64,000 nt of DNA from Chitinophagales bacterium (GTDB taxonomy: Bacteria > Bacteroidota > Bacteroidia > Chitinophagales > BACL12): positions 17,122 through 81,121 of the forward strand of contig JBGAWP010000004.1 in the NCBI GenBank assembly GCA_044227505.1, read 5' to 3'. A program made the position numbers and the translations under genes. The notes under the pieces are model-generated. The model was not told the DNA's origin. It did no database searches and saw only the letters and a list, made by a program, of their open reading frames with translations. Of this stretch, positions 7,960 to 60,718 are shown one piece after another (position 1 is the first letter of the stretch; each line of letters starts with the position of its first letter).

Positions 7960-8172
7960 TTATTTATCTTCAGTCTTCTTAGGTTCGTCATTAACGCCTT
8001 CGCGTATTTCGCGGCTAACGTTGTTTTTAGCATCGTTAAATTCGCGAATCCCTTTACCGATACCACGCATCAGTTCCGGAATTTTCTTTCCGCCAAAAAG
8101 TAGTAAAATAGCTAAAACGATTATTATCCATTCCATTCCGCTAGGCATTGCAAGTAATAACACAGTATTCAT
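7960..8172 (-). CDS. tatA: Twin-arginine translocase subunit TatA/E
   Basis: 70 aa with one transmembrane helix followed by the [20 protein letters not shown] motif. Confidence 0.85.
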
Positions 8173-10300: not shown

Positions 10301-12077
10301 ATAAGGTTTTATCGCTGATCTTTTTATCGATAAGATCGGTTGTCTCGCCGGCGGCTTTTGCCTTTATCCAATATTCCACTGCCTTTTCTTTATCGCCGAG
10401 TTGATATAATATATCCCCATAGTGTTCTAAAACTGTACCACTTTCTTTACCGCCATGTGCAAGTGCTTTTTCCATCCACAATTTCGCATCCTTATATTTC
10501 TTTTGTTTATACAATATCCATGCATAGGTATCTTCCAAGGAAGCATTGTCGGGAATTAATTTTATGGAAGCAGCTGACATTTCAGCCGCACGTTCTAAAT
10601 TTTCGTTGCGCACCGATAAAAAATAAGCATAATTATTCAGCGTAAATGGATTATCGGGATTCAACTGCAAACTATTTTCAAATGCCTTGTCCGATTCCAC
10701 ATAGTTTTTTACATCATTATAAGCATTTCCAAGTTCCGTAAAAATATCAGCTCTTAATTGTGTATTGGAAACGGTAAGAGGCAAACCTCTTTTTAAAGTC
10801 TTGATGGCAGCTTCTGCATCGTTTAAATTATTGAGTGCAACTCCATTAAAATAATAACCAAGGGGTTGATTGGGATATAATTCAATTGCTGAAGTGGTCA
10901 CATATTTTAAAGAGTCAAATTCTCTCAGGTCAGAATAAATGTAAAACATTTTGATCCACACATCATAAATATCGCTTCGTATTTTCAGCGACTTATTATA
11001 TGCAGCAGCAGCATCCCGTAAACTTCCCGAATAAAATAAAAAATCTCCCCGCATGGCAAAAGATTTTGCATCTTCCGGATGCGCTTCCACTAATAATTTG
11101 GTCCAGGTTAGAACAGTATCTTTTAATTTAAAATTGGGTTTGTCGAGTGAATCAACGAATAAAACGAGATAAAATATTTTTGTGTCAATATTTCCAAGTC
11201 CATTTGCAAATGCCTTGTGCATGGTGGTAAAATAGGCATTTTCGTCACCCGCTTTTTTTTGAAAACTCGCTTTGCGGAATTGCAGATCAACATTATTACT
11301 ATCGGTGAGCAACAATTTATCAAAGGTTTGCTGAGCCAGTTCCGGTTGACCTGCGCGTTCGTAATATTCACTTAAGTAGCGGAGATAGCCGGTATTATAG
11401 GGATCTAATTCAATGAGTTTAAGCAATGCATCGATCGCTTTTTCCGGTTGATCGTTCATTGCATACAAACGCTGTAATTCAAACAGAACAGATTCATTTT
11501 CCCCCTCTAAAACCACCAATCTTTGCATGGTTTTTATTGCATCGTCTTTTTTTCCGGCCTTTTCATAACTATATGCCAAACGATAATAAACCTCTTCACT
11601 AAATGCCTGATCCTTCAGAATATTTTCATACACTTCTGCTGCTTTATCAAAAGAGGAGCCATAGGATAAAATATCAGCATATAGGAGTTGATAATAAATA
11701 TTTTTTGGCTCCAATTCCACTGCTTTTCTGATATATTCCTGTGCATCTCCCAACTGACCATATTTAAAATAAATGGTACTCAATTGAAACATACTGGCAG
11801 TGTTATTGGCATCCACTTTTAATATGTCGCCAAATGCATTTACTGCTTTTTCAATATCATCTAAAGCAAGGTATTTACAACCATCAATATATAATCGTTC
11901 GATCTCTGCAGAATCAATTTTTCCTTCGCTTTTTCCGGATATCGCTTTTTGTGTTTGTGATCCTTTAACAGGAGCAGTATTTCCTGTTTGCGTATTTTTA
12001 GTTGAACTACATGCGGATATGGCAAGTAAAAAAACTATAGAAAATAAATGGGAATATTGTTTAATTGTTTTTATCAT
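10293..12077 (-). CDS. Tetratricopeptide-repeat lipoprotein
   Basis: Lipobox (AISAC). Many 34-aa TPR-like units with A..Y....L..DP.N patterns. Confidence 0.85.
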   Translation of the reverse strand: MIKTIKQYSHLFSIVFLLAISACSSTKNTQTGNTAPVKGSQTQKAISGKSEGKIDSAEIERLYIDGCKYLALDDIEKAVNAFGDILKVDANNTASMFQLSTIYFKYGQLGDAQEYIRKAVELEPKNIYYQLLYADILSYGSSFDKAAEVYENILKDQAFSEEVYYRLAYSYEKAGKKDDAIKTMQRLVVLEGENESVLFELQRLYAMNDQPEKAIDALLKLIELDPYNTGYLRYLSEYYERAGQPELAQQTFDKLLLTDSNNVDLQFRKASFQKKAGDENAYFTTMHKAFANGLGNIDTKIFYLVLFVDSLDKPNFKLKDTVLTWTKLLVEAHPEDAKSFAMRGDFLFYSGSLRDAAAAYNKSLKIRSDIYDVWIKMFYIYSDLREFDSLKYVTTSAIELYPNQPLGYYFNGVALNNLNDAEAAIKTLKRGLPLTVSNTQLRADIFTELGNAYNDVKNYVESDKAFENSLQLNPDNPFTLNNYAYFLSVRNENLERAAEMSAASIKLIPDNASLEDTYAWILYKQKKYKDAKLWMEKALAHGGKESGTVLEHYGDILYQLGDKEKAVEYWIKAKAAGETTDLIDKKISDKTLYE

Positions 12078-28503: not shown

Positions 28504-28543
28504 AGGAAAAAGGAGAGAGGAAAAAGGAGAGAGGAGAAAGGAG
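28504..28543 (+). repeat. Purine heptamer tract (AGGAAAA AGGAGAG AGGAAAA AGGAGAG AGGAGAA AGGAG)
   Basis: The 7-nt period is read directly from the sequence. Confidence 0.9.
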
Positions 28544-28647: not shown

Positions 28648-28757
28648 TTCCTATGTCCCATTTCCCATGTCCTATGTCTGTCCTATGTCCTATGTCTTGT
28701 GTCCTATTTCCTATGTCTTATGTCCTATTTCCTATGTCTTATTTCCTATTTCCTCTC
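28648..28757 (+). repeat. Pyrimidine heptamer tract, about 15 units of (T/G)TCCTAT / GTCTTAT
   Basis: TTCCTATGTCCCATTTCCCATGTCCTATGTC...TTCCTATTTCCTCTC. The 7-nt period is read directly. It overlaps the last four codons and the stop of bshA. Confidence 0.9.
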
Positions 28758-36887: not shown

Positions 36888-37984
36888 AGTGGTGGCATAA
36901 AATAATTTTGTTTTTTACAATTCTCAATTTGATCTTCCTGTTGGGAGCTTATATGGCAATGTATGTAAGCCCGGAAAGTTTTTGGCCTGTTGCATTTATC
37001 GGATTGGGTTATATTCCCGTTTTGGTGGTTTATCTGTTTTTTATGCTCCTCTGGTTTTTTATGCACAGAAAGGTATTTTATGTTTTGCTCGTATTTTTAA
37101 TTTTAGGTTTTAATGCGCACAGAAGTTATTTTGCGATCGGGTCGCTAAAAAAGACAAATACAGAAGGAAAAAAAACATATAGTATTTTACAATATAATGT
37201 TCAGGGATTTGATGCTTATAATAAAGATGGTAAATACCTCAACAGAGAAGAAATAATTTCCAATATTGCAGAAGCAAAAGCGGATATAATATGTCTGGAA
37301 GAATTTAATACCTACCATGATCATCCGACTGAAAAGAGCAATTTAGATATGGTTATTGCCGCAACAGGATTAAACCATAAGTATTATTATAAGGCATATG
37401 AAAATTCGAAATCGACCAGAAGTTTCGGATTGATAATACTTTCTCGTTTTCCTGTTATTAGTTCCGGTCATCTGGAGTATTTATCACTCAGCAGATTAAA
37501 TTCCACGATATATGCTGACCTGCTGATAGAAAATGATACCATAAGAGTATTTTGCTCGCATTTACAGTCTACTCAATTAAGTCATTACGATCTCGAATTT
37601 ATTGAAGCGAGCAATGAAGCGCAAACTGATTTTGATGCTGATAGAATAACGAACAAATTAAAAATGAGTTACGCTTTGAGGGCGCAGGAGGCAGATACAG
37701 TTTCCACTTACTTAAAAAAATCGCCTCATCCTATTATTTCCTGTGGTGATTTTAATGATACACCTGTTTCTTATACCTATCGCAAAATGAGTGAGGATCT
37801 TCAGGATGCCTTTTTGCAAAAAGGATTTGGCATTGGAGCTACCTATGCACCATTTCCATTTATAAGAATAGATTATCAGTTATTTGATGAGGATAAATTT
37901 GATATTGTTGATTTTAAAAGGATCAAAGAGAGATCAAGCGATCATTATCCTTGTGTTACTACGTTTGTGATGAATGAGAAATGA
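36884..37984 (+). CDS. Endonuclease/exonuclease/phosphatase (EEP) family membrane-anchored protein
   Basis: N-terminal transmembrane helices. EEP motifs (ICLEEF, ..GDFND.., SDHYP). Confidence 0.8.
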   Translation: MKWWHKIILFFTILNLIFLLGAYMAMYVSPESFWPVAFIGLGYIPVLVVYLFFMLLWFFMHRKVFYVLLVFLILGFNAHRSYFAIGSLKKTNTEGKKTYSILQYNVQGFDAYNKDGKYLNREEIISNIAEAKADIICLEEFNTYHDHPTEKSNLDMVIAATGLNHKYYYKAYENSKSTRSFGLIILSRFPVISSGHLEYLSLSRLNSTIYADLLIENDTIRVFCSHLQSTQLSHYDLEFIEASNEAQTDFDADRITNKLKMSYALRAQEADTVSTYLKKSPHPIISCGDFNDTPVSYTYRKMSEDLQDAFLQKGFGIGATYAPFPFIRIDYQLFDEDKFDIVDFKRIKERSSDHYPCVTTFVMNEK

Positions 37985-38396
37985 GTTATGAATAATGAGA
38001 TTGATCCTCGATAGCCGGATGTATTTACTCCTGCCCAATGAATATTGACTCCTGACAAACCTCCACGGACACACGATTCACGAATAAATGAGTTATGAGT
38101 GATGAGTGTGATTCTTTATGGCCGGAATGACTCACTCCTGACTAATGACTATTGAAATTGGGTGAGTAGTGAGTGCTGAGTGGTGAGATTGATCCTCGAT
38201 AGCCGGATGTTTTTACTCCTGACTATTGACTATTGACGGAAAGAGGTGAGATTGATCCTCAATAGCCGGATGTATTTACTCCTGACTAATAACTATTGAA
38301 GGAAAGTGGTGAGATTTATCCTTGAAAGCCGGATGTTTTTACTCCTGATTAATGACAATTGACTCCTGACAACCCTCCACGCCTCACGATTTCCTA
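37966..38396 (+). repeat. Array of five composite heptamer-tract elements: (A/G)TGAG(T)-tract, core ATTGATCCTCGATAGCCGGATGTATTTACTCCTGAC, then TAATGAC/TATTGAC-tract
   Basis: The core occurs at about 38000, 38111 (diverged), 38188, 38251 and 38313. The array starts within the last codons of the EEP gene and ends 14 nt before the cysS ATG. Confidence 0.9.
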
Positions 38397-44693: not shown

Positions 44694-45353
44694 ATGCGCA
44701 TCATAAAAAAAATCGCACAATTATTTATTCAACCGGTGATAAGAAAAAGAATTCACCGCACCTCTATTTATAATTGGAAGGATATTACTTTACATCTTCC
44801 ACCGGGCATTTTTCATCCTGCCTATTTTTTCAGTACAAAATTTTTACTGCAGTATTTGTTAAAAATTGAAGTTACCGGAAAAACTTTTTTGGAACTCGGA
44901 GCCGGAAACGGGTTGATAAGTATGGCTATTGCAAAACGTGGCGCGTTGGTCACTTCAACTGATATAAGCACTAAGGTGATCGAACATCTTAAAGAAAATT
45001 CACGAGCGAATAATGTTGATCTTACAATAATTCAAAGTGATCTTTTTGATCAGGTGCCAGAGCAACTGTTCTCCATCATTGCAATTAATCCTCCATACTA
45101 TCCTAAAACACCGAGAAACGAATTTGAGCAAGCCTGGTATTGCGGTGAAAATTTCGAATACTTTGAGAAACTATTTCGTGAGCTCCCCAATTACCATGGC
45201 GACAAATCGCAGGTGTTAATGGTCTTATCAGAAGAATGCGATTTGAAACATATCAGGTCCATTGCCGCAAAAAATGGTTATGACTTAAATCTGAGAGAAA
45301 AAAAGCGCATATATTGGGAAATGAATTATATTTTTGAGATCAGAAGGGCATGA
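44694..45353 (+). CDS. NPPY-motif (HemK/PrmC/RsmC-like, amino-group directed) SAM-dependent methyltransferase
   Basis: Motif I LELGAGNGLIS and motif IV IAINPPYYP. Confidence 0.72.
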   Translation: MRIIKKIAQLFIQPVIRKRIHRTSIYNWKDITLHLPPGIFHPAYFFSTKFLLQYLLKIEVTGKTFLELGAGNGLISMAIAKRGALVTSTDISTKVIEHLKENSRANNVDLTIIQSDLFDQVPEQLFSIIAINPPYYPKTPRNEFEQAWYCGENFEYFEKLFRELPNYHGDKSQVLMVLSEECDLKHIRSIAAKNGYDLNLREKKRIYWEMNYIFEIRRA

Positions 45354-46306
45354 ATAACAATTTATACATAGAACACAGTAATATTCCATCGCAGGAGACC
45401 GTAAAAAATAGTGTTTTGCGCTCACTCATTTATTTTGATATTTTTAATTATCCACTTACAGCAAATGAGTTAGTTCAGTTTAGTTCTGTTAAATTGCATG
45501 ATATACAGAGTATTACTCAGGCATTGGATGATCTCACACAACATCTCCTCATTTTTAAATTTGGAGATTATTACTCCCTTAAAAACGACCCTTCACAAAT
45601 TGAACGCAGAAAGAACGGCAATAATACTGCGGCAGAAATTTTACCAAAAGCACTGAAGCGTTCTAAATTTATTTATAAATTTCCCTTTGTAAGAAGCGTG
45701 AATATTTCGGGATCCTTGTCTAAAAATTATTTTGACGAAAGCACCGATTTCGATTTTTTCATTATAGCAGAAGCAAATCGTATTTGGTTGTGTAGATTGT
45801 TGTTGACCTTTTACAAAAAAATATTCCTGTTCAACTCCCGCAAATATTTCTGCATCAATTATTATATCGACACCACCGATCTGCTGATACCGGATAAGAA
45901 TTTATTTTCAGCGACCGAGATCATCACATTAAAAAATCAGACTGGAGAAGCTGTGTATAAAGATTTTATGGAAACCAATACCTGGGTGCAGGAATATTTT
46001 CCAAATTATTTTCCTGACTATTTATTTATGGAGGAAAAGAAAATGCCTGGGCTGAAGAAATTTTTAGAAAGTTTATTTTCTGGCAAGATTGGCAATTATT
46101 TTGATGACCTTTCATTTAAAATTACTACCGGATTTTTGAAAAGGAAGTACAGACATTTAAAAAAGGAAGAATTCAATGTGAATTTGCGCACGAAAAAAAA
46201 TGCATCCAAACATCATCCTCAGGGATTTCAGTTTAAGGTTTTGAATGCTTTTGAAGAGAAATGCCGAGATTTTGACGGAAAACATCATGTTGGAATAGGG
46301 ACTTAG
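45350..46306 (+). CDS. Hypothetical protein with a minimal Pol-beta-type nucleotidyltransferase motif
   Basis: The segment ISGSLSKNYFDESTDFDFFII fits hG[GS]-x(9-13)-DhDh. ATGA overlap with the upstream gene. The stop codon is provided by the TAGGAAR heptamer tract. Confidence 0.5.
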   Translation: MNNNLYIEHSNIPSQETVKNSVLRSLIYFDIFNYPLTANELVQFSSVKLHDIQSITQALDDLTQHLLIFKFGDYYSLKNDPSQIERRKNGNNTAAEILPKALKRSKFIYKFPFVRSVNISGSLSKNYFDESTDFDFFIIAEANRIWLCRLLLTFYKKIFLFNSRKYFCINYYIDTTDLLIPDKNLFSATEIITLKNQTGEAVYKDFMETNTWVQEYFPNYFPDYLFMEEKKMPGLKKFLESLFSGKIGNYFDDLSFKITTGFLKRKYRHLKKEEFNVNLRTKKNASKHHPQGFQFKVLNAFEEKCRDFDGKHHVGIGT

Positions 46307-46338
46307 GAAATAGGAAGTAGGAAATAGGAAGTAGGAAT
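46292..46338 (+). repeat. Heptamer tract (GGAATAG GGACTTAG GAAATAG GAAGTAG GAAATAG GAAGTAG GAATAC)
   Basis: The 7-nt period is read directly. Its words (ATAGGAA) are the reverse complement of the TTCCTAT words in the 28648..28757 tract. Confidence 0.9.
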
Positions 46339-46386: not shown

Positions 46387-46526
46387 CAGACGCGGATGAC
46401 GCTGATTGGGCGGAAAAAAAAGGATAAAAATGATGCGGGAATCGGGACACTGGATACATAACTTAGGACATAAGATCTATGGCTTAGAAAAGATTGAGGA
46501 TATAAATTTTCGTAGAAAATTTATCA

Positions 46527-46569
46527 CTCACGATTCACGCCTCACGATTCACGAATGACGATTGACGAC
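46527..46569 (+). repeat. Heptamer tract (TCACGAT TCACGCC TCACGAT TCACGAA TGACGAT TGACGAC) abutting the start codon of radical SAM paralogue 3
   Basis: The 7-nt period is read directly. It ends 1 nt before the ATG at 46571. Confidence 0.9.
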
Positions 46570-50884: not shown

Positions 50885-51052
50885 TTCGATTGTGTTGATC
50901 GGTTACAGGGCTAAACAAGGGTATAAATTTACGATAACTTTACACAAATTTCCAAAAAGATGTATTTGAGACCACATAAATTTATCCACCGGACAGCTAT
51001 TGCATTTTATATAGTTACTACATTTACAGCTTGTTCAACTACAAATAATGTT

Positions 51053-51436
51053 ATGAAAAAAGTGATTTACACTCCAAACGCACCTGCCCCGATAGGTCCA
51101 TATTCTCAGGCTATTGAAGCAAACGGTTTTGTTTATGTTTCAGGACAAATTGCCATAGATCCAACTACAAATGAACTTTACACCGGCGCGGATATAAAAG
51201 TGGAAACAACCCAGGTGATGGAAAATTTGAAAGCAATAATTACGGCTGCAGATTGTGAAATGAAAGATGTTGTGAAGTGCACCATTTTTTTGAGAGATAT
51301 GGCTGATTTTGCTGAGGTAAATTCCGTTTATGCCGAATATTTTCCGGAATATGCACCGGCGCGTGAAACGGTTGCTGTTGTGGGGCTGCCTAAAAATGCG
51401 AGGGTGGAGATCAGTGCTGTGGTGGGGAAGAGGTGA
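51053..51436 (+). CDS. ridA: RidA family (YjgF/UK114) reactive-intermediate deaminase
   Basis: MKKVIYTPNAPAPIGPYSQAI.ANGFVYVSGQ start and a C-terminal PARETVAV..LPKNARVEI. I chose the internal ATG. The stop TGA is the first word of the GGTGAGT tract. Confidence 0.88.
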   Translation: MKKVIYTPNAPAPIGPYSQAIEANGFVYVSGQIAIDPTTNELYTGADIKVETTQVMENLKAIITAADCEMKDVVKCTIFLRDMADFAEVNSVYAEYFPEYAPARETVAVVGLPKNARVEISAVVGKR

Positions 51437-51896
51437 GTGGTGAAGGGTGAGTGGTGAGAATGCTTCTCGTAAGCCGAATATTTTTACACCTGACTAATGA
51501 CTCTTGACGGTGAATGGTGAGTAGTGAGTGGTGAGTGTGATCCCGATAGCCGGAAGCATTTATACCTGACCAATGACTCTTGACAAATGAGTAATGAGTT
51601 ATGAGTAATGAGTTTGAATCTGGTAAGCCGAATGGTTTTACTCCTGACGGTGAATGGTGAGTAGTGAATGGTGAGTGTGATCCCGATAGCCGAATGGTTT
51701 TACTCCTGACTAATGACTCTTGACTAATGAATAATGAGTTATGAGTAATGAGTTTGAACCTGGTAAGCCGAATGGTTTTACACCTGACTAATGACTCTTG
51801 ATGGTGAATGGTGAGTAGTGAGTGGTGAGAATGCTTCTCGTAAGCTGAATATTTTTACACCTGACTAATGACTCTTGACCAATGACTAATAACTCC
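51431..51896 (+). repeat. Array of six tandem composite heptamer-tract units (64-95 nt each) in the order A-B-C-B'-C'-A'
   Basis: Units are at 51431-51507, 51508-51583, 51584-51647, 51648-51723, 51724-51800 and 51801-51895. Each has a GGTGAGT or AATGAGT tract, then a core ending ..(T)AAGCCGAAT..TTTTAC(A/T)CCTGAC, then a TAATGAC TCTTGAC tract. Confidence 0.92.
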
Positions 51897-51965
51897 CGTC
51901 ATGCTAATGATAAATGCCGGTAAACAAGTTCACCGGCATTGTACATATAAACATAATCACAACAG

Positions 51966-52529
51966 TTATTTTGCATCTTTTGCCATTTCCTGGCAATGTT
52001 CTGCATGTGTCAGATGTTCGCGTAATTTTGGTAAGGTATTGTTTGCTAAAGTTTTAACCTCGGCATTTTCACAATCTTCCGCTGCTTTTTCAAAACTGTC
52101 AATGGCATCTTTATGATACTTTACCATTACGTCAGAATATTCCTTATCAAAGTCAGCGCCTTCTTTTTTGGAAAGATTTTCATACTTTCTTTGTGCTTCG
52201 TTTTCGGCATAGGTTGGAATGGATATACCCAATTTAGTAGCCAATGCAATTACTTCGGCATGCAGTTTTTTATGATCGTTAATAAACATGGTAGCCATGT
52301 CTTTTGTTTCCTGCATTGTTGCAGATGTTGCAGCCAGCTCAGACAAGTAAATGCCATCGAGATTCGTTTCAGCTGCAGCTCTTAAAAATTCTGCATCGGG
52401 ACCTTTATCATCTCGTTTTTCTTCTTTTGTTAAACCGTCGTCATTCATGTCGGACGTTTTTGAATTGTTACAAGAAATAATTACCAGTGCAAACACAGGT
52501 AACGCAAGAATTAAATTTTTCAATTTCAT
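51966..52529 (-). CDS. DUF4142-like (ferritin-like four-helix) lipoprotein
   Basis: Lipobox (VIISC). Two repeats of a ...A....A...(F)..DH.K....L motif. The family assignment is from memory. Confidence 0.7.
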   Translation of the reverse strand: MKLKNLILALPVFALVIISCNNSKTSDMNDDGLTKEEKRDDKGPDAEFLRAAAETNLDGIYLSELAATSATMQETKDMATMFINDHKKLHAEVIALATKLGISIPTYAENEAQRKYENLSKKEGADFDKEYSDVMVKYHKDAIDSFEKAAEDCENAEVKTLANNTLPKLREHLTHAEHCQEMAKDAK

Positions 52530-54078: not shown

Positions 54079-54092
54079 TGGTGATTTTCTTC

Positions 54093-54640
54093 GATGAGTA
54101 ATGAGTTATGAGTAATGAGTTTAGCCCTGCACGGATCATACTCTTATTTCTACATGTTACATTTTTCTTTCCTGTACGACTAAAAATTTCAATCCAACGA
54201 TGGTCCCACTCATTACTCATTTAGTGAATGGTGAGTAGTGAGTGGTGAGCTTATTCCTGCATACATCAAACAATATTTACTGATTTTTACATTTTACTTT
54301 CCTGAATGAGTAATGAGTTATGAGTTATGAGTTTTAGCCCTGCTCGCATTATACTTTTATTTCTTCACATTATATTTTACTTTCCTGAAGGACTGAAATT
54401 ATCAATCCATCGTTTGACCCACTCATAACTCATTATTCATAACTCTTTGAATGAGTAATGAGTTTTAGCCCTGCTCGCATTATACTCTTATTTCTTCACA
54501 TTACATTTTCCTCTCCTGAAGGAATAAAATTACCAATCCTTCGAATAACCCTCTTCATTTTCCTTACATCACCTTCCTTCCTTTTTTCCCTTAGACCCTT
54601 CCCTTCGATTCTTCGAATCTTCTCCCTTCGATTCTTTGAT
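54093..54640 (+). repeat. Array of four elements, including ~130-140-nt MITE-like units whose terminal inverted repeats are ATGAGTAATGAG heptamer tracts
   Basis: Unit 54093-54220 runs GATGAGTAATGAGTTATGAGTAATGAG ... CACTCATTACTCAT. Unit 54305-54447 runs AATGAGTAATGAGTTATGAGTTATGAG ... CACTCATAACTCATTATTCATAACTC. The shared core TTTAGCCCTGC.CG.AT.ATACT.TTATTTCT.CACAT...ATTTT.CTTTCCTG occurs three times. Confidence 0.9.
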
Positions 54641-54644
54641 TGCC

Positions 54645-56409: not shown

Positions 56410-56706
56410 ATGACTTTATTGGAAAAGATTATGGAAACATTGCTGAAAAATAAACAATATCTCGCTTCTAAATATGGAGTAAGTAGTATCGGTTTATTCG
56501 GGGAATCGGTTACAGAAGATTTCCATTCAGGCAGTGAAATTGATATCATTGTAGACTTCAAAAAACCAATCGGTCTTGAAATAGTAGACCTCGGCGACGA
56601 ACTCGAAAAACTTCTAGGTCACAAAGTGGACCTTGTTTCAAAAAACGGTTTGGAAAAAGATTATTACAAAGTGTTTAGAAAGGAAATTTTGTATGTTGGA
56701 AAATGA
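56410..56706 (+). CDS. Minimal nucleotidyltransferase (MNT-type, antitoxin-like) domain protein
   Basis: 98 aa with GLFGESV...SGSEIDIIVDF (G-S ... D-x-D). Confidence 0.72.
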   Translation: MTLLEKIMETLLKNKQYLASKYGVSSIGLFGESVTEDFHSGSEIDIIVDFKKPIGLEIVDLGDELEKLLGHKVDLVSKNGLEKDYYKVFRKEILYVGK

Positions 56707-56712
56707 TGGCCA

Positions 56713-56877
56713 TTTGTTAATTTGGTAATCTGGTAATTTGTTAATTTGTTAATCCGTTAAGGCCGGCTGTTCCATTATCAATTATCAATTGTCAATTGTC
56801 AATTTTTCCCGGCTGTTCATCGGTACATTGGTACATCTTTTTTCATCGGTACATTATCATTATCCTATCATCATTCC
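56713..56877 (+). repeat. Composite tract region with different words: (TTTGTTAA/TCTGGTAA) x6, (ATTATCA/ATTGTCA) x4, (ATCGGTAC/ATTGGTAC), (ATTATC/ATCATC). Tracts are joined by the connectors GGCCGGCTGTTCC and TCCCGGCTGTTC.
   Basis: Periods of 7-8 nt are read directly. The right end encodes the last ~9 residues and the stop of the minus-strand gene 56843..57964. Confidence 0.88.
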
Positions 56878-58024: not shown

Positions 58025-58444
58025 ATGAAATTATTCAACATCATATTGGGATCAGTTATAGTATTTTTTATTGTAATGTTTCTGCGTTGCGAAAAGGTTA
58101 CAGAAATTACTGAACTTACGAAAAATACTGAAAGTTTACAAATTGTATTTTACAACGATTCCGTTCCAAATAAAATAGTAGAGATCACCGATAAAAATGA
58201 AATAAAAAAATTCGGGAAATTTATTTCCGACAAAGACACACCATTATACAAATGCAGTTATGATGGACAGATCATTTTTGTATTAAATAATGATGTTGCA
58301 ATTGGCAAAAAAAATACCATCACCATGGAATTTAATCTGCAGCCTGATTGCACACATGTTGCTTATATGTATGCGGAAGGATTGCGGACAAAAGAATTGA
58401 GTGAGGAGGGGGTGGAGTATTTGAAAAATGTGAATGGTGAGTAG
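58025..58444 (+). CDS. Hypothetical membrane-anchored/secreted protein
   Basis: N-terminal hydrophobic helix. 139 aa with no recognisable family. The stop TAG lies in a GGTGAGTAGTCAGTAG tract. Confidence 0.4.
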   Translation: MKLFNIILGSVIVFFIVMFLRCEKVTEITELTKNTESLQIVFYNDSVPNKIVEITDKNEIKKFGKFISDKDTPLYKCSYDGQIIFVLNNDVAIGKKNTITMEFNLQPDCTHVAYMYAEGLRTKELSEEGVEYLKNVNGE

Positions 58445-58711
58445 TCAGTAGTAAGGAAGCTCCGATTGGAACTTTAATCGCGATTCAACAAATGAGTAAT
58501 GAATAGATTCTCGTTAACCTGATAATTATACTCCTCCTTAATGATTCCTGACAGTAAGGTGAGTGGTGAATGGTTAGTGGTGAGTAAATCCTCGACGACC
58601 TGATTATACTACTCCTGACTAATGACTTCTGACAATTTACAAATGATAATTCACAATTTAAAAGTTTGTTACCGCTAAGCCGGATTCACGTCTCACGATT
58701 CACGACCCTCC
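58429..58711 (+). repeat. Composite heptamer-tract region with three units and a terminal TCACGTC TCACGAT TCACGAC tract
   Basis: Runs GTGAATGGTGAGTAGTCAGTAGTAAG..., then AAATGAGTAATGAATAG...TACTCCTCCTTAATGATTCCTGAC, then GGTGAGTGGTGAATGGTTAGTGGTGAG...CTACTCCTGACTAATGACTTCTGAC. It overlaps both flanking CDS ends. Confidence 0.88.
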
Positions 58712-59225: not shown

Positions 59226-60629
59226 TTATTTATATCCAACAATCAATTGCTGTCCTATGCTGATGGTATTGTCTTTTAGAGCATTCCATTCCTGAATTTG
59301 TGTTACCGTGACTCCATACATTTTTGATAATCCGTAAAGTGTTTCTTTTGCCGAAACAGTATGGGTTATAGCTATCTTTTCTTGTGCAGCCTGAGGTGTA
59401 ATAATTTCTTCCCTTTTAATTTCTTGTTCTCCCTGCGCACCTGGTGGATTGTTGTTTTTTTCCGGTACAACTATCTCCTCATCAAAATCCAGAAATTCAT
59501 CATTATTATCATCTATAAACTCTTTTTCAACGGGCACATTCTCCTTGTCCTCCGTAGCTTTAGCGGAGGAGGACTTCTCCTCTCTCCTCACTCCTTTCTC
59601 CTCCTTTCCCTTCTCCTCACTCCTTTCTCCTTTCTCCTCCTTTAACTTAACCGGATCCTTCCTTTTATCTCTTAAATTAATTTGTTCGCCCACCGCAGGT
59701 TCTTCACCTGGTTGCATTTTGTTGTATTTATATAATTGTTCCATTCGCACTCCTTCATCTCTTGAAATGGTCCACATGGTTTCGCCTTCTTTAACGGTAT
59801 GAAATTTAGTATCGCCCTTTTTGCGTTTTGGCTGCAAATAAAATTTAGTGCCGGGTGTTAAAGTGCCTCCATTTTCAATATCATTATAATCCTTTAAAAG
59901 AGATAATTTTTTATGGTGTTTTTCCGCGAGTTTTTCAGGTGAATCTCCGGCTTGAATTGTTACGGCAGGAATGCGATTGAAATAATAAACATCTTCATTG
60001 TATCCTCCCCAGGTAAAATTTTTCTCTTTTTTATTTTCATCCTTTTTTTCAACCGGGTCTTTTTTTACTATCGGATCCTCTTTTTCTATTTTTTTATTGT
60101 GTTTTTTAGCCTCTGCGAGCGACATTTTATCTAATGCATGCAGATCATATTCTTCAATAAGATTTATTAAAAGATCGGCATACTTCGGATTTGTTGCATA
60201 ACCGGCAGCTTTTAATCCTTTTGCCCATCCTTTATAATCATCGGCATCTAATTTAAATAATTCGGCATATCGTGTTTTGGAAGATAAAAATTCGGAGTGA
60301 TCGCGATACGAATCTTCCACATGATCGTATTTTCTGAAACATTCATCCTTTGCATCATCGTCATAATATACTTTTTCTCCCTTCCAATCGGTGTGACATT
60401 TTATGCCGAAATGATTATTTGATTTTTTTGCGAGTTCACTTTGTCCCGCACCACTTTCTAAAATTCCCTGCGCCATAGTGATACTCGCCGGAATTTTATA
60501 TTCCACCATTTCTGCTACAGCAATTGCCTTGTATTGGTCAATATAATCCAACACCGCCTGACTTGGTTGTCCTGCAGAAAGTGCAATGTAAGTAAGCAGA
60601 ATAAAAAACGTTGTGCAGACCTTTTTCAT
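59226..60629 (-). CDS. Peptidoglycan N-acetylglucosaminidase (FlgJ/mannosyl-glycoprotein endo-beta-N-acetylglucosaminidase domain) with three LysM domains
   Basis: The internal Met gives the signal peptide MKKVCTTFFILL... Glucosaminidase region (ITMAQGILESGAGQSELAKKSNNHFGIKC). LysM-like segments occur near TIQAGDSPEKLA, HTVKEGETMWTIS and HTVSAKETLYGLS. Confidence 0.85.
   Translation of the reverse strand: MKKVCTTFFILLTYIALSAGQPSQAVLDYIDQYKAIAVAEMVEYKIPASITMAQGILESGAGQSELAKKSNNHFGIKCHTDWKGEKVYYDDDAKDECFRKYDHVEDSYRDHSEFLSSKTRYAELFKLDADDYKGWAKGLKAAGYATNPKYADLLINLIEEYDLHALDKMSLAEAKKHNKKIEKEDPIVKKDPVEKKDENKKEKNFTWGGYNEDVYYFNRIPAVTIQAGDSPEKLAEKHHKKLSLLKDYNDIENGGTLTPGTKFYLQPKRKKGDTKFHTVKEGETMWTISRDEGVRMEQLYKYNKMQPGEEPAVGEQINLRDKRKDPVKLKEEKGERSEEKGKEEKGVRREEKSSSAKATEDKENVPVEKEFIDDNNDEFLDFDEEIVVPEKNNNPPGAQGEQEIKREEIITPQAAQEKIAITHTVSAKETLYGLSKMYGVTVTQIQEWNALKDNTISIGQQLIVGYK
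59574..59643 (-). repeat. Heptamer tract (plus-strand words nnnCTCC; gene-sense GGAGnnn) embedded in frame in the CDS, encoding a K/E/G-rich linker (KEEKGERSEEKGKEEKGVRREEKS)
   Basis: Plus strand reads CTTCTCC TCTCTCC TCACTCC TTTCTCC TCCTTTCCC TTCTCC TCACTCC TTTCTCC TTTCTCC. This is the same word family as the intergenic tract 28504..28543. Confidence 0.85.
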
Positions 60630-60718
60630 ACCGTATTTTGAATTGCGGATTATCACAATCAAAATTACCTCTCTAAACGGTTGAGGCTCAACTTATATTA
60701 TCCGCAATAATATGTTAT

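Follow-up and report, generated by a model that had tools for sequence, protein, structure and literature searches.

Composite heptamer units in the ridA–DUF4142 spacer

The stretch analyzed here, referred to as the window, comprises 64,000 nucleotides of contig JBGAWP010000004.1 from a Chitinophagales genome assembly (GCA_044227505.1). Within it, a RidA-family gene (ridA) and a DUF4142 gene converge upon a spacer that measures 529 nt when read directly, and this spacer houses an array of tandem units composed of heptanucleotide words (Table 1). The two flanking genes had been named in a preliminary description of the window, and the Pfam assignments (Ribonuc_L-PSP/RidA and DUF4142) agree with those names. 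The ridA open reading frame (ORF) is called from position 50960, with the ATG at 51053 as the likely start. Its TGA stop codon (51434–51436) sits inside the first GGTGAGT heptamer of the array, and the RidA C-terminus stays normal, reading ...AVVGKR-stop as compared to ...AVVVKR-stop in a repeat-free relative. The array is thereby placed between the ridA stop codon and a strong predicted hairpin. This hairpin is likely the DUF4142 terminator and possibly operates in both directions; a simple terminator scan missed it because its T tail is weak.

Positions 51432–51879 parse without remainder into six head-to-tail units of 77/77/63/77/77/77 nt in the order A-B-C-B-C-A. This architecture, first put forward in the preliminary description, is borne out by the exact parse, by Tandem Repeats Finder (period 140 with 2.1 copies, 91%, score 487; also period 77 with 3.1 copies, and period-7 tracts), and by a repeat search that returned a gap-free 140-nt repeat pair of 91% identity. 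The unit is polar: three to four NNTGAGT heptamers lead into a ~22-nt core and TTTTACWCCTGAC, and NNNTGAC heptamers close it. Written as a general formula for units of 63–77 nt, this is (NNTGAGT)3–4, a ~22-nt core of few subtypes, TTTTACTCCTGAC, and (NNNTGAC)1–3. The 5′ heptamers are GGTGAGT/GGTGAAT in types A and B and AATGAGT/TATGAGT in type C. Downstream of the core come TTTTAC(A/T)CCTGAC and then TAATGAC TCTTGAC, the second tract of a unit being three NNNTGAC heptamers (the CCTGAC end, TAATGAC, and TCTTGAC). Unit 3 is 14 nt shorter because it retains only the first of these three; the original assertion that every unit bears a 3′ TAATGAC TCTTGAC tract is correct for the other units and fails for this one. 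The block of Unit 2 likewise needed correction and reads TTTATACCTGAC. Identity is 94% between A1 and A6, 88% between B2 and B4, and 78% overall between C3 and C5, with the 24-nt C cores at 96%. Allowing up to one mismatch, the TTTACWCCTGAC block has 12 occurrences in the window where chance would give 0.35, and all 12 fall within arrays.

Table 1. Coordinates of the ridA array, its flanking features and the two other loci of the family in the window.
Feature	Position	Strand	Description
RidA-family gene	51053–51436	+	PF01042; homologues named RidA or 2-iminobutanoate deaminase
Unit 1, type A	51432–51508	+	GGTGAGT-type heptamers ×4, core AATGCTTCTCGTAAGCCGAATATT, TTTACACCTGAC, TAATGAC, TCTTGAC; nhmmer E 2e-23
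Unit 2, type B	51509–51585	+	core TGTGATCCCGATAGCCGGAAGCAT, block TTTATACCTGAC
Unit 3, type C	51586–51648	+	63 nt; AATGAGT-type heptamers ×4, core TTTGAATCTGGTAAGCCGAATGG, one TGAC heptamer
Unit 4, type B	51649–51725	+	
Unit 5, type C	51726–51802	+	full length
Unit 6, type A	51803–51879	+	
Degenerate TGAC-type heptamer tail	51880–51896	+	CAATGAC TAATAAC TCC
Strong hairpin	51913–51940		AATGCCGGT...ACCGGCATT; flanked by the array and the DUF4142 stop codon; minimum free energy folds of both strands
DUF4142 gene	51966–52529	−	PF13628; convergent with ridA
Second array (38 kb)	37969–38370	+	5–6 units, partly of 63-nt period; between an Exo_endo_phos gene and cysS (both +)
Third locus (58 kb)	58476–58640	+	2 units; 3′ of the + strand gene 58025–58444, convergent with a phosphoribosyltransferase gene

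The units recur at other loci and in related genomes

A profile built from the six units detected, using nhmmer, 13 units at three loci of the window, all on the plus strand. The TGA stop codon (37982–37984) of the gene upstream of the 38-kb array sits inside an AATGAGT heptamer. The 38-kb array ends in CCTCCACG...CTCACGATT(C/T), an inverted CGTGAGT-type heptamer motif. At the third locus, an inverted tract (ATTCACG TCTCACG ATTCACG, 58683–58705) overlaps the stop codon of the minus-strand phosphoribosyltransferase gene, and both genes of this convergent pair are equipped with a separate TGA-containing tract in sense orientation.

To look beyond the window, one genome per GTDB species, a set of representatives in which the source genome is not included, was scanned with the 19-mer TTTACWCCTGACYAATGAC. 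The scan returned 24 stretches. Fifteen lie in metagenome-assembled genomes (MAGs) of Chitinophagaceae, Chitinophagales or Bacteroidota (~8 MAGs), all intergenic; the nine in other phyla are all inside ORFs, as expected of chance matches. Further 19-mer copies are present in JGI/ENA metagenome contigs, several of them from the same microbial-mat samples. The MAG and metagenome loci hold full units of the same polar build, often with several arrays within 8 kb. With copies at two more window loci and in ~8 MAGs, the absence of further copies, which the preliminary description had named as a result that would speak against a repeat family, is not what was found. Its assignment of the host to Bacteroidota also agrees with a neighboring CHU_C domain, with nearest RidA homologues labeled 'Chitinophagales bacterium', and with the copies in Chitinophagaceae MAGs. 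The same 19-mer scan of viral contigs, phage genomes and plasmids gave zero copies, and a phage, plasmid or viral origin was discarded on that ground. On one metagenome contig (L028, Ga0163148_10005405), ~38 GATGAGT/AATGAGT heptamers spanning ~270 nt precede a family core at ~11360–11640.

The relationships among the cores cut across loci. The A core resembles a core from MAG GFS_13507 (0.83) more than it resembles its array neighbors B and C (≤0.71), and the B cores are as near to the cores of the 38-kb array as to one another. Core subtypes are therefore common to loci and species, which makes the ridA array a mosaic of subfamily members rather than the diverged descendants of a single founder.

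The array is neither coding nor structured

In line with the initial observation that the spacer lacks ORF-like signal, no ORF of at least 30 amino acids is present in 51444–51898 on either strand. The plus strand of the ridA array carries 63 stop codons that close each frame within ≤63 nt; the antisense strand is nearly stop-free, with 13 stops and a 426-nt stop-free stretch. A coding reading was rejected: this minus-strand stretch has no start codon, the 77- and 140-nt lengths of units and indels are not multiples of three, and indels of 77 or 140 nt between alleles would shift the frame.

Several searches for structure were negative. No inverted repeats were found in 51400–51930, and RNAalifold predicted zero pairs for 17 units drawn from the three window loci and nine loci of other MAGs. 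A candidate 4-bp core stem (ATCC/GGAT) was paired in 66% of cases as compared to 64% in shuffles, with no covariation beyond shuffles; on these two results a structured RNA was rejected. The plus strand folds with z −2.8, mainly from the flanking hairpin and long-range G-U pairing, and the minus strand folds no better than shuffles (z −1.0). At gathering thresholds, Rfam returned zero matches in the window. A permissive Rfam scan gave only chance-level archaeal C/D-box snoRNA matches (E 0.1–0.4, far below threshold), which arise because of UGAUGA-like and CUGA words. As neither Rfam nor the literature searched contains such a family, the possibility raised in the preliminary description that it is already catalogued was not realized. 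Scans for sigma-70 promoters and intrinsic terminators over the ridA and 38-kb arrays found no excess. A miniature inverted-repeat transposable element was rejected, since inverted repeats are lacking and the two ends of the unit are different direct heptamer words.

Four further readings are hardly credible, namely an assembly artefact, a CRISPR-like array, a structured non-coding RNA and a G-quadruplex (G4) repeat. Such readings draw on contigs that often break at the array (L003 and L063 both end inside it), and on the resemblance of its G-rich four-heptamer tracts to the G4 repeats of Xanthomonas (PMC4692102). However, ViennaRNA with G4 energies predicted no quadruplex for the GGUGAGU tracts while the control GGGAAUC ×4 folded at −8.4 kcal/mol, and the AATGAGT tracts have no GG runs. 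A CRISPR array was rejected as repeat makes up the entire sequence, cores come back within the array (A1=A6, B2~B4, C3~C5) and are found at other loci, and unique spacers are absent; neither conserved pairs nor an Rfam family support a structured RNA. Against an artefact stands a second, independent assembly of the six units.

Array alleles differ in heptamer and unit number

The flanking proteins were looked up in public assemblies, and the ridA locus was recovered five more times. The strains carrying these alleles are ~98–99% identical in the flanks. Relative to the six units of the window, i) allele L062 (ERZ27258492) has the same six units with private single-nucleotide polymorphisms (SNPs); ii) allele L002 (ERZ27258512) has four units, A1-B4-C5-A6, and is exactly 140 nt shorter; iii) allele L064 (ERZ27258514) has four units, A1-B2′-C(3/5 hybrid)-A6; and iv) allele L001 (ERZ27258513) has a single A1-type unit fused to the A6 flank. 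The hybrid C unit of L064 is C3-like on its 5′ side and C5-like on its 3′ side, and has all three TGAC heptamers, of which Unit 3 has one. The private SNPs of L062 imply that the six-unit state was assembled independently; the ridA array is not an assembly artefact, and it withstood the check for one that the preliminary description had called for.

The length of the array thus shifts at two scales, by heptamers (14 nt) and by units (140 nt, 371 nt), and the allele breakpoints fall within heptamer tracts or within unit segments that are identical between units, as slippage together with unequal recombination would give. The preliminary description had explained the array by duplication of a B-C pair. 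The 140-nt pair does exist, but a simple duplication in place is too simple an account because the B-C copies differ by 9%, as compared to ~1–2% between strains. Two distinct four-unit alleles match different parts of the six-unit allele, and recombination among alleles or units would fit this pattern as well as duplication in place.

Comparison of orthologous sites, suggested at the outset, places the array in time. RidA orthologues at 80–82% identity are separated from the next convergent gene by spacers of 33 nt (L066, GCA_038223395.1) and 12 nt (L068), in which lag-7 analysis (self-match at an offset of seven) found zero tract bases. At 91% identity (L065), the same stop codon is followed by a different element, consisting of AATGAGT ×3, another core, and six inverted ACTCACC heptamers. 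Because the 80–82% orthologues have short, repeat-free spacers, the ridA array is a recent, lineage-specific gain. The EamA–Obg spacer, which measures 566 nt in the window, is 15 nt in L068.

The lag-7 check, which had been proposed genome-wide and was applied to the window, set heptamer tracts apart from the other periods. Of 6,267 intergenic bases, 450 belong to lag-7 tracts, as compared to 63 of 57,733 coding bases, with other lags covering 0–55 intergenic bases; by number there are eight lag-7 tracts against 0–1 for other lags. Lag-7 tract density is 3–36 bases/kb in most loci with full units, zero in L066–L069, and zero in all seven loci from other phyla. The lineages with such tracts include that of the window, GFS_13507 and SRP128246_co1_457, and GCA_038223395.1 is without them.

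Units follow gene 3′ ends in sense orientation

Orientation was counted over 16 non-redundant loci. The repeats lie downstream of a co-oriented gene at 13 of 16 loci (50% expected; binomial p ~0.01) and between convergent genes at 9 of ~15. They overlap the stop codon at six of 13 sense-side loci and at none of 10 antisense-side loci (hypergeometric p ~0.017; Mann-Whitney p 0.038). In four genes of the window, the stop codon is part of the first heptamer in a sense-oriented tract (stops 51436, 37984, 46306 and 28746). The tract at 46303–46338, TAGGAAA/TAGGAAG ×5, starts on the TAG stop of the gene at 45350–46306. Two tracts, 28504–28543 (AGGAGAA ×5–6) and 28649–28754 (TCCTATG ×15), lie between YqeY and glycosyltransferase genes; on the minus strand the latter reads ATAGGAC/ATAGGAA, with the TAG stop of the glycosyltransferase gene (28746–28748) in its first heptamer. 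An inverted CGTGAGT-type tract (ACTCACG/ATTCACG ×6) at 46526–46569 is directly 5′ of a radical-SAM gene at 46562.

Given the position between convergent genes and the strand asymmetry, the array could be pictured as a strand-specific insulator, in which the C-rich, G-poor and unstructured antisense RNA would act as a rut-like site of Rho loading and the G/U-rich sense RNA would not. The minus strand of the ridA array has a C/G ratio of 1.9, with 74 YC dimers against 31 on the plus strand, and the absence of antisense folding beyond shuffles and the frequent convergent setting described above are also in keeping with this proposal. We regard it as improbable: the C/G ratio is 1.0 in the 58-kb copy, the 38-kb array (C/G 1.36) lies between co-directional genes, the DUF4142 gene already has a strong hairpin before the array, and composition is the sole basis of the idea. 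More improbable still is an array of double-stranded DNA sites for a nucleoid-associated, partition-like or regulatory iteron-binding protein. The motifs are tandem, regularly spaced and conserved, and Nostoc heptamer tracts affect promoter use (bioRxiv 10.1101/2022.06.06.494920); yet at a spacing of 7 bp neighboring sites face different sides of the B-DNA helix, the copies are found mainly at gene 3′ ends and not at promoters, their number is highly variable, and no excess of sigma-70-type promoters accompanies them.

Relation to known heptamer and interspersed repeats

Cyanobacteria provided the first reports of tandem heptamers decades ago, with Xanthomonas, Nostoc and Beggiatoaceae added since. 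In Nostocales, Elhai and co-workers are said to have described in 2008 STRR heptamer tracts with nested small dispersed repeats (SDRs). The STRR consensus words are CCCCAGT (STRR1), TTGGTCA (STRR2) and CAACAGT (STRR3). The family reported here resembles these elements in placing a short conserved non-coding element within tandem heptamers, in its many dispersed intergenic copies, in its mosaic or nested build, and in its restriction to a lineage; it differs in belonging to another phylum and in having no hairpin potential, the two having been compared by description. The cyanobacterial repeats are mentioned in PMC5861425 and PMC3116915, and the likeness to them had been pointed out in the preliminary description and is reasonable. 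The accompanying claim that some of the words themselves are STRR-like did not survive: CCCCAGT ×2 has zero matches and TTGGTCA ×2 has one with one mismatch (51876–51889), which is chance level.

Xanthomonas GGGAATC and Nostoc GGGGA(C/T)T are heptameric simple sequence repeats (SSRs) that adjoin stop codons (Rehm et al. 2015, PMC4692102). These tracts have ~4 units, with the G-rich strand as the coding strand, and lie 0–50 bp from the stop or overlap it; tracts on the other strand lie farther away (PMC4692102). For prokaryotes at large, an excess of long heptanucleotide SSRs with slippage as the proposed cause is credited to Mrazek et al. (2007) in the account given by PMC4679880. The Chitinophagales tracts are likewise intergenic, of ~4 units, with the G-rich strand on the coding strand, at or over the stop codon, and in lineage-specific excess. 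In contrast, they have no predicted G4, use two word classes (NNTGAGT and NNNTGAC), and form the ends of a 63–77 nt unit with a core and a block that is itself tandem and dispersed.

The REP/BIME elements of enterobacteria and the REPINs of Pseudomonas offer another comparison, in which REPs are imperfect palindromes mobilized by RAYT transposases (PMC3116915). Shared features are the small size and extragenic location of the repeats, mosaic arrays of alternating subtypes, enrichment at gene 3′ ends and between convergent genes, and strain-variable copy number; unlike REPs, the Chitinophagales units have neither an inverted repeat nor a supported stem. Finally, TAACTGA direct repeats occur, alongside other heptamer repeats, in Beggiatoaceae, Cyanobacteria and five Bacteroidetes (MacGregor 2015, PMC4679880), mainly just 5′ of start codons (PMC4679880). 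They too are intergenic, oriented, rich in forward-strand stops, present in Bacteroidetes, patchy in phylogeny, and missing at the same loci in close relatives. The word is different, the position is mostly before starts, and no composite unit of core and block is described for them; tandem TAACTGA has one match, with two mismatches (TAACTCA ×2), again chance level.

No description of the composite unit family was found in the literature searched. The preliminary description was aware of no described equivalent family in Bacteroidota. The composite unit alone is new, as intergenic heptamers of Bacteroidetes (PMC4679880) and stop-adjacent sense tracts (PMC4692102) had already been described. 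At the ridA locus the same positional grammar recurs in a distant phylum: some four heptamers occupy the sense strand and coincide with the stop codon. The Chitinophagales tracts are, in addition, parts of a larger polar unit that includes a conserved 19-nt block.

A model for the repeat family

Taken together, a model emerges to which we assign a probability of about 0.6: the ridA array belongs to a lineage-specific, non-coding, non-palindromic mosaic interspersed repeat family of uncultured Chitinophagales. Its units are modular, dispersed over loci and species, and assembled into mosaic arrays that rapidly gain and lose heptamers and units. It is best read as a mosaic intergenic repeat of BIME-like or STRR/SDR-like kind, whose arrays expand and contract through slippage and unequal recombination. 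Heptamer tracts would arise and vary through replication slippage; the tracts would then supply microhomology for unequal recombination, template switching or gene conversion, and those processes would duplicate or delete units and move cores between loci. Selection would leave the elements where they do least harm, just 3′ of stop codons and in sense orientation. A tract creeping over a gene end would alter only the last few codons, because the sense strand has TGA/TAA in all frames within the short distance given above. Under this model, the array serves no purpose specific to ridA; it is probably read along passively with the gene, forming the ridA 3′ untranslated region (UTR) upstream of the hairpin.

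Several observations weigh against this model. No trace of a route of dispersal to new loci was found, neither a target-site duplication, nor a transposase, nor a precise empty site at close evolutionary distance. No transposase is present among the 14 of ~50 window ORFs scanned against Pfam, which was neither a systematic screen of the window nor a search aimed at RAYT. The alleles come from short-read assemblies (k=141) that are able to mis-join repeats, and the orientation statistics were computed from 16 loci with the help of a crude ORF caller. In addition, the TTTTACTCCTGAC-TAATGAC block is far better conserved across species than the core, and it also stands alone at the conserved thyA–folA junction and at other junctions; such conservation is a hint that the block is recognized or has a function and is not neutral.

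These stand-alone blocks have the form TATC-TTTACTCCTGAC-TAATGAC, with neither 5′ heptamers nor core, and occur at the same gene junctions in several Chitinophagaceae species (L005, L018, L022, L049 and L050 at thyA–folA; L011, L019, L034, L044 and L057 elsewhere). They lie 10–25 nt before the start codons of folA and of another gene, with the folA ATG inside the following heptamer. Such a block could be what remains of a unit, or a motif with a function. The perfect conservation of its 19-mer is not counted as a sign of function because the loci were retrieved by exact 19-mer match and are a biased set.

The block and the sense orientation behind genes could also be accounted for by a functional 3′-UTR or single-strand element, in which the NNUGAGU and NNNUGAC heptamers and the UUUUACUCCUGAC block would bind a small RNA (sRNA) or a protein in a 7-nt register, for instance of cold-shock/S1/OB-fold or RRM type. 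Such an array might stabilize the upstream mRNA, sequester the bound factor, or govern how translation ends and restarts at gene junctions. Across species, no part of the unit is better conserved than the block, which also stands alone before folA and another gene, a weak point given the exact-match set; similar proposals have been made for TAACTGA repeats (PMC4679880) and Nostoc heptamers (bioRxiv 10.1101/2022.06.06.494920), and Xanthomonas heptamer tracts are mostly transcribed (PMC4692102). We nevertheless consider the proposal unlikely. The array is not kept at orthologous sites, being absent at 80–82% RidA identity and replaced by a different element at 91%, and this turnover argues against a gene-specific role; near-identical strains have from one to six copies, and neither a partner protein nor an sRNA was identified.

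A bolder version of this thought, which we hold to be distinctly more doubtful, would make the units cis-elements of an undescribed protein-mediated system that operates in a 7-nt single-strand register and marks gene 3′ ends in some Chitinophagales, a counterpart to REP/BIME. The grammar of heptamers that these Chitinophagales have in common with Nostocales, Xanthomonas and Beggiatoaceae would in that case come from one dedicated mechanism that makes or uses such tracts, and not from passive slippage. If true, such a system might serve mRNA 3′-end protection, translation termination and re-initiation, or the strand-specific insulation of convergent genes. If the repeats are merely slippage-driven passengers, as the favored mosaic-repeat model has it, they are a tidy but ordinary new repeat family. 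The natural alleles of one, four and six units in co-occurring strains, together with closely related lineages that have or lack the repeats, provide a way to seek the responsible factor, and the allelic series can also be used to gauge the effect of copy number on the neighboring gene. In practical terms, these arrays interrupt contigs built from short reads and can lead to misplaced gene ends in Chitinophagales MAGs.

Other repeats and unlisted genes in the window

A second composite family occupies 54079–54644, where ~3.5 copies fill the EamA–Obg spacer. Each copy has an AATGAGT or GGTGAGT tract and a core, TTTAGCCCTGC(A/T)CG...TTTTACTTTCCTG (~55–110 nt); two copies end in inverted ACTCAT(T/A) heptamers, and a period-8 tract, CTTCGATT, is found at 54603–54641. 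A GC-skew profile, considered as a guide to replication direction, follows gene orientation and was set aside as uninformative.

One heptamer tract is coding. TCTCCTC ×9 at 59574–59643 (GAGGAGA on the coding strand, Shine-Dalgarno-like) lies inside the 478-amino-acid ORF 59226–60662 and falls in the linker between its Glucosaminidase and LysM domains at about residues 340–363; heptamer tracts are therefore not strictly barred from coding sequence. Two short ORFs had not been listed. At 56410–56706, a 98-amino-acid nucleotidyltransferase ORF (MNT-like, PF01909) has no HEPN partner and is followed directly on its 3′ side by the 8-mer ATTTGTTA ×5 (56712–56753) and by ATT(A/G)TCA ×4 (56774–56804), in a region that extends to 56842. 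On the minus strand at 7960–8172, a 70-amino-acid TatA/E-family ORF (PF02416) occupies a 300-nt gap in the list of ORFs made with a 110-amino-acid threshold.

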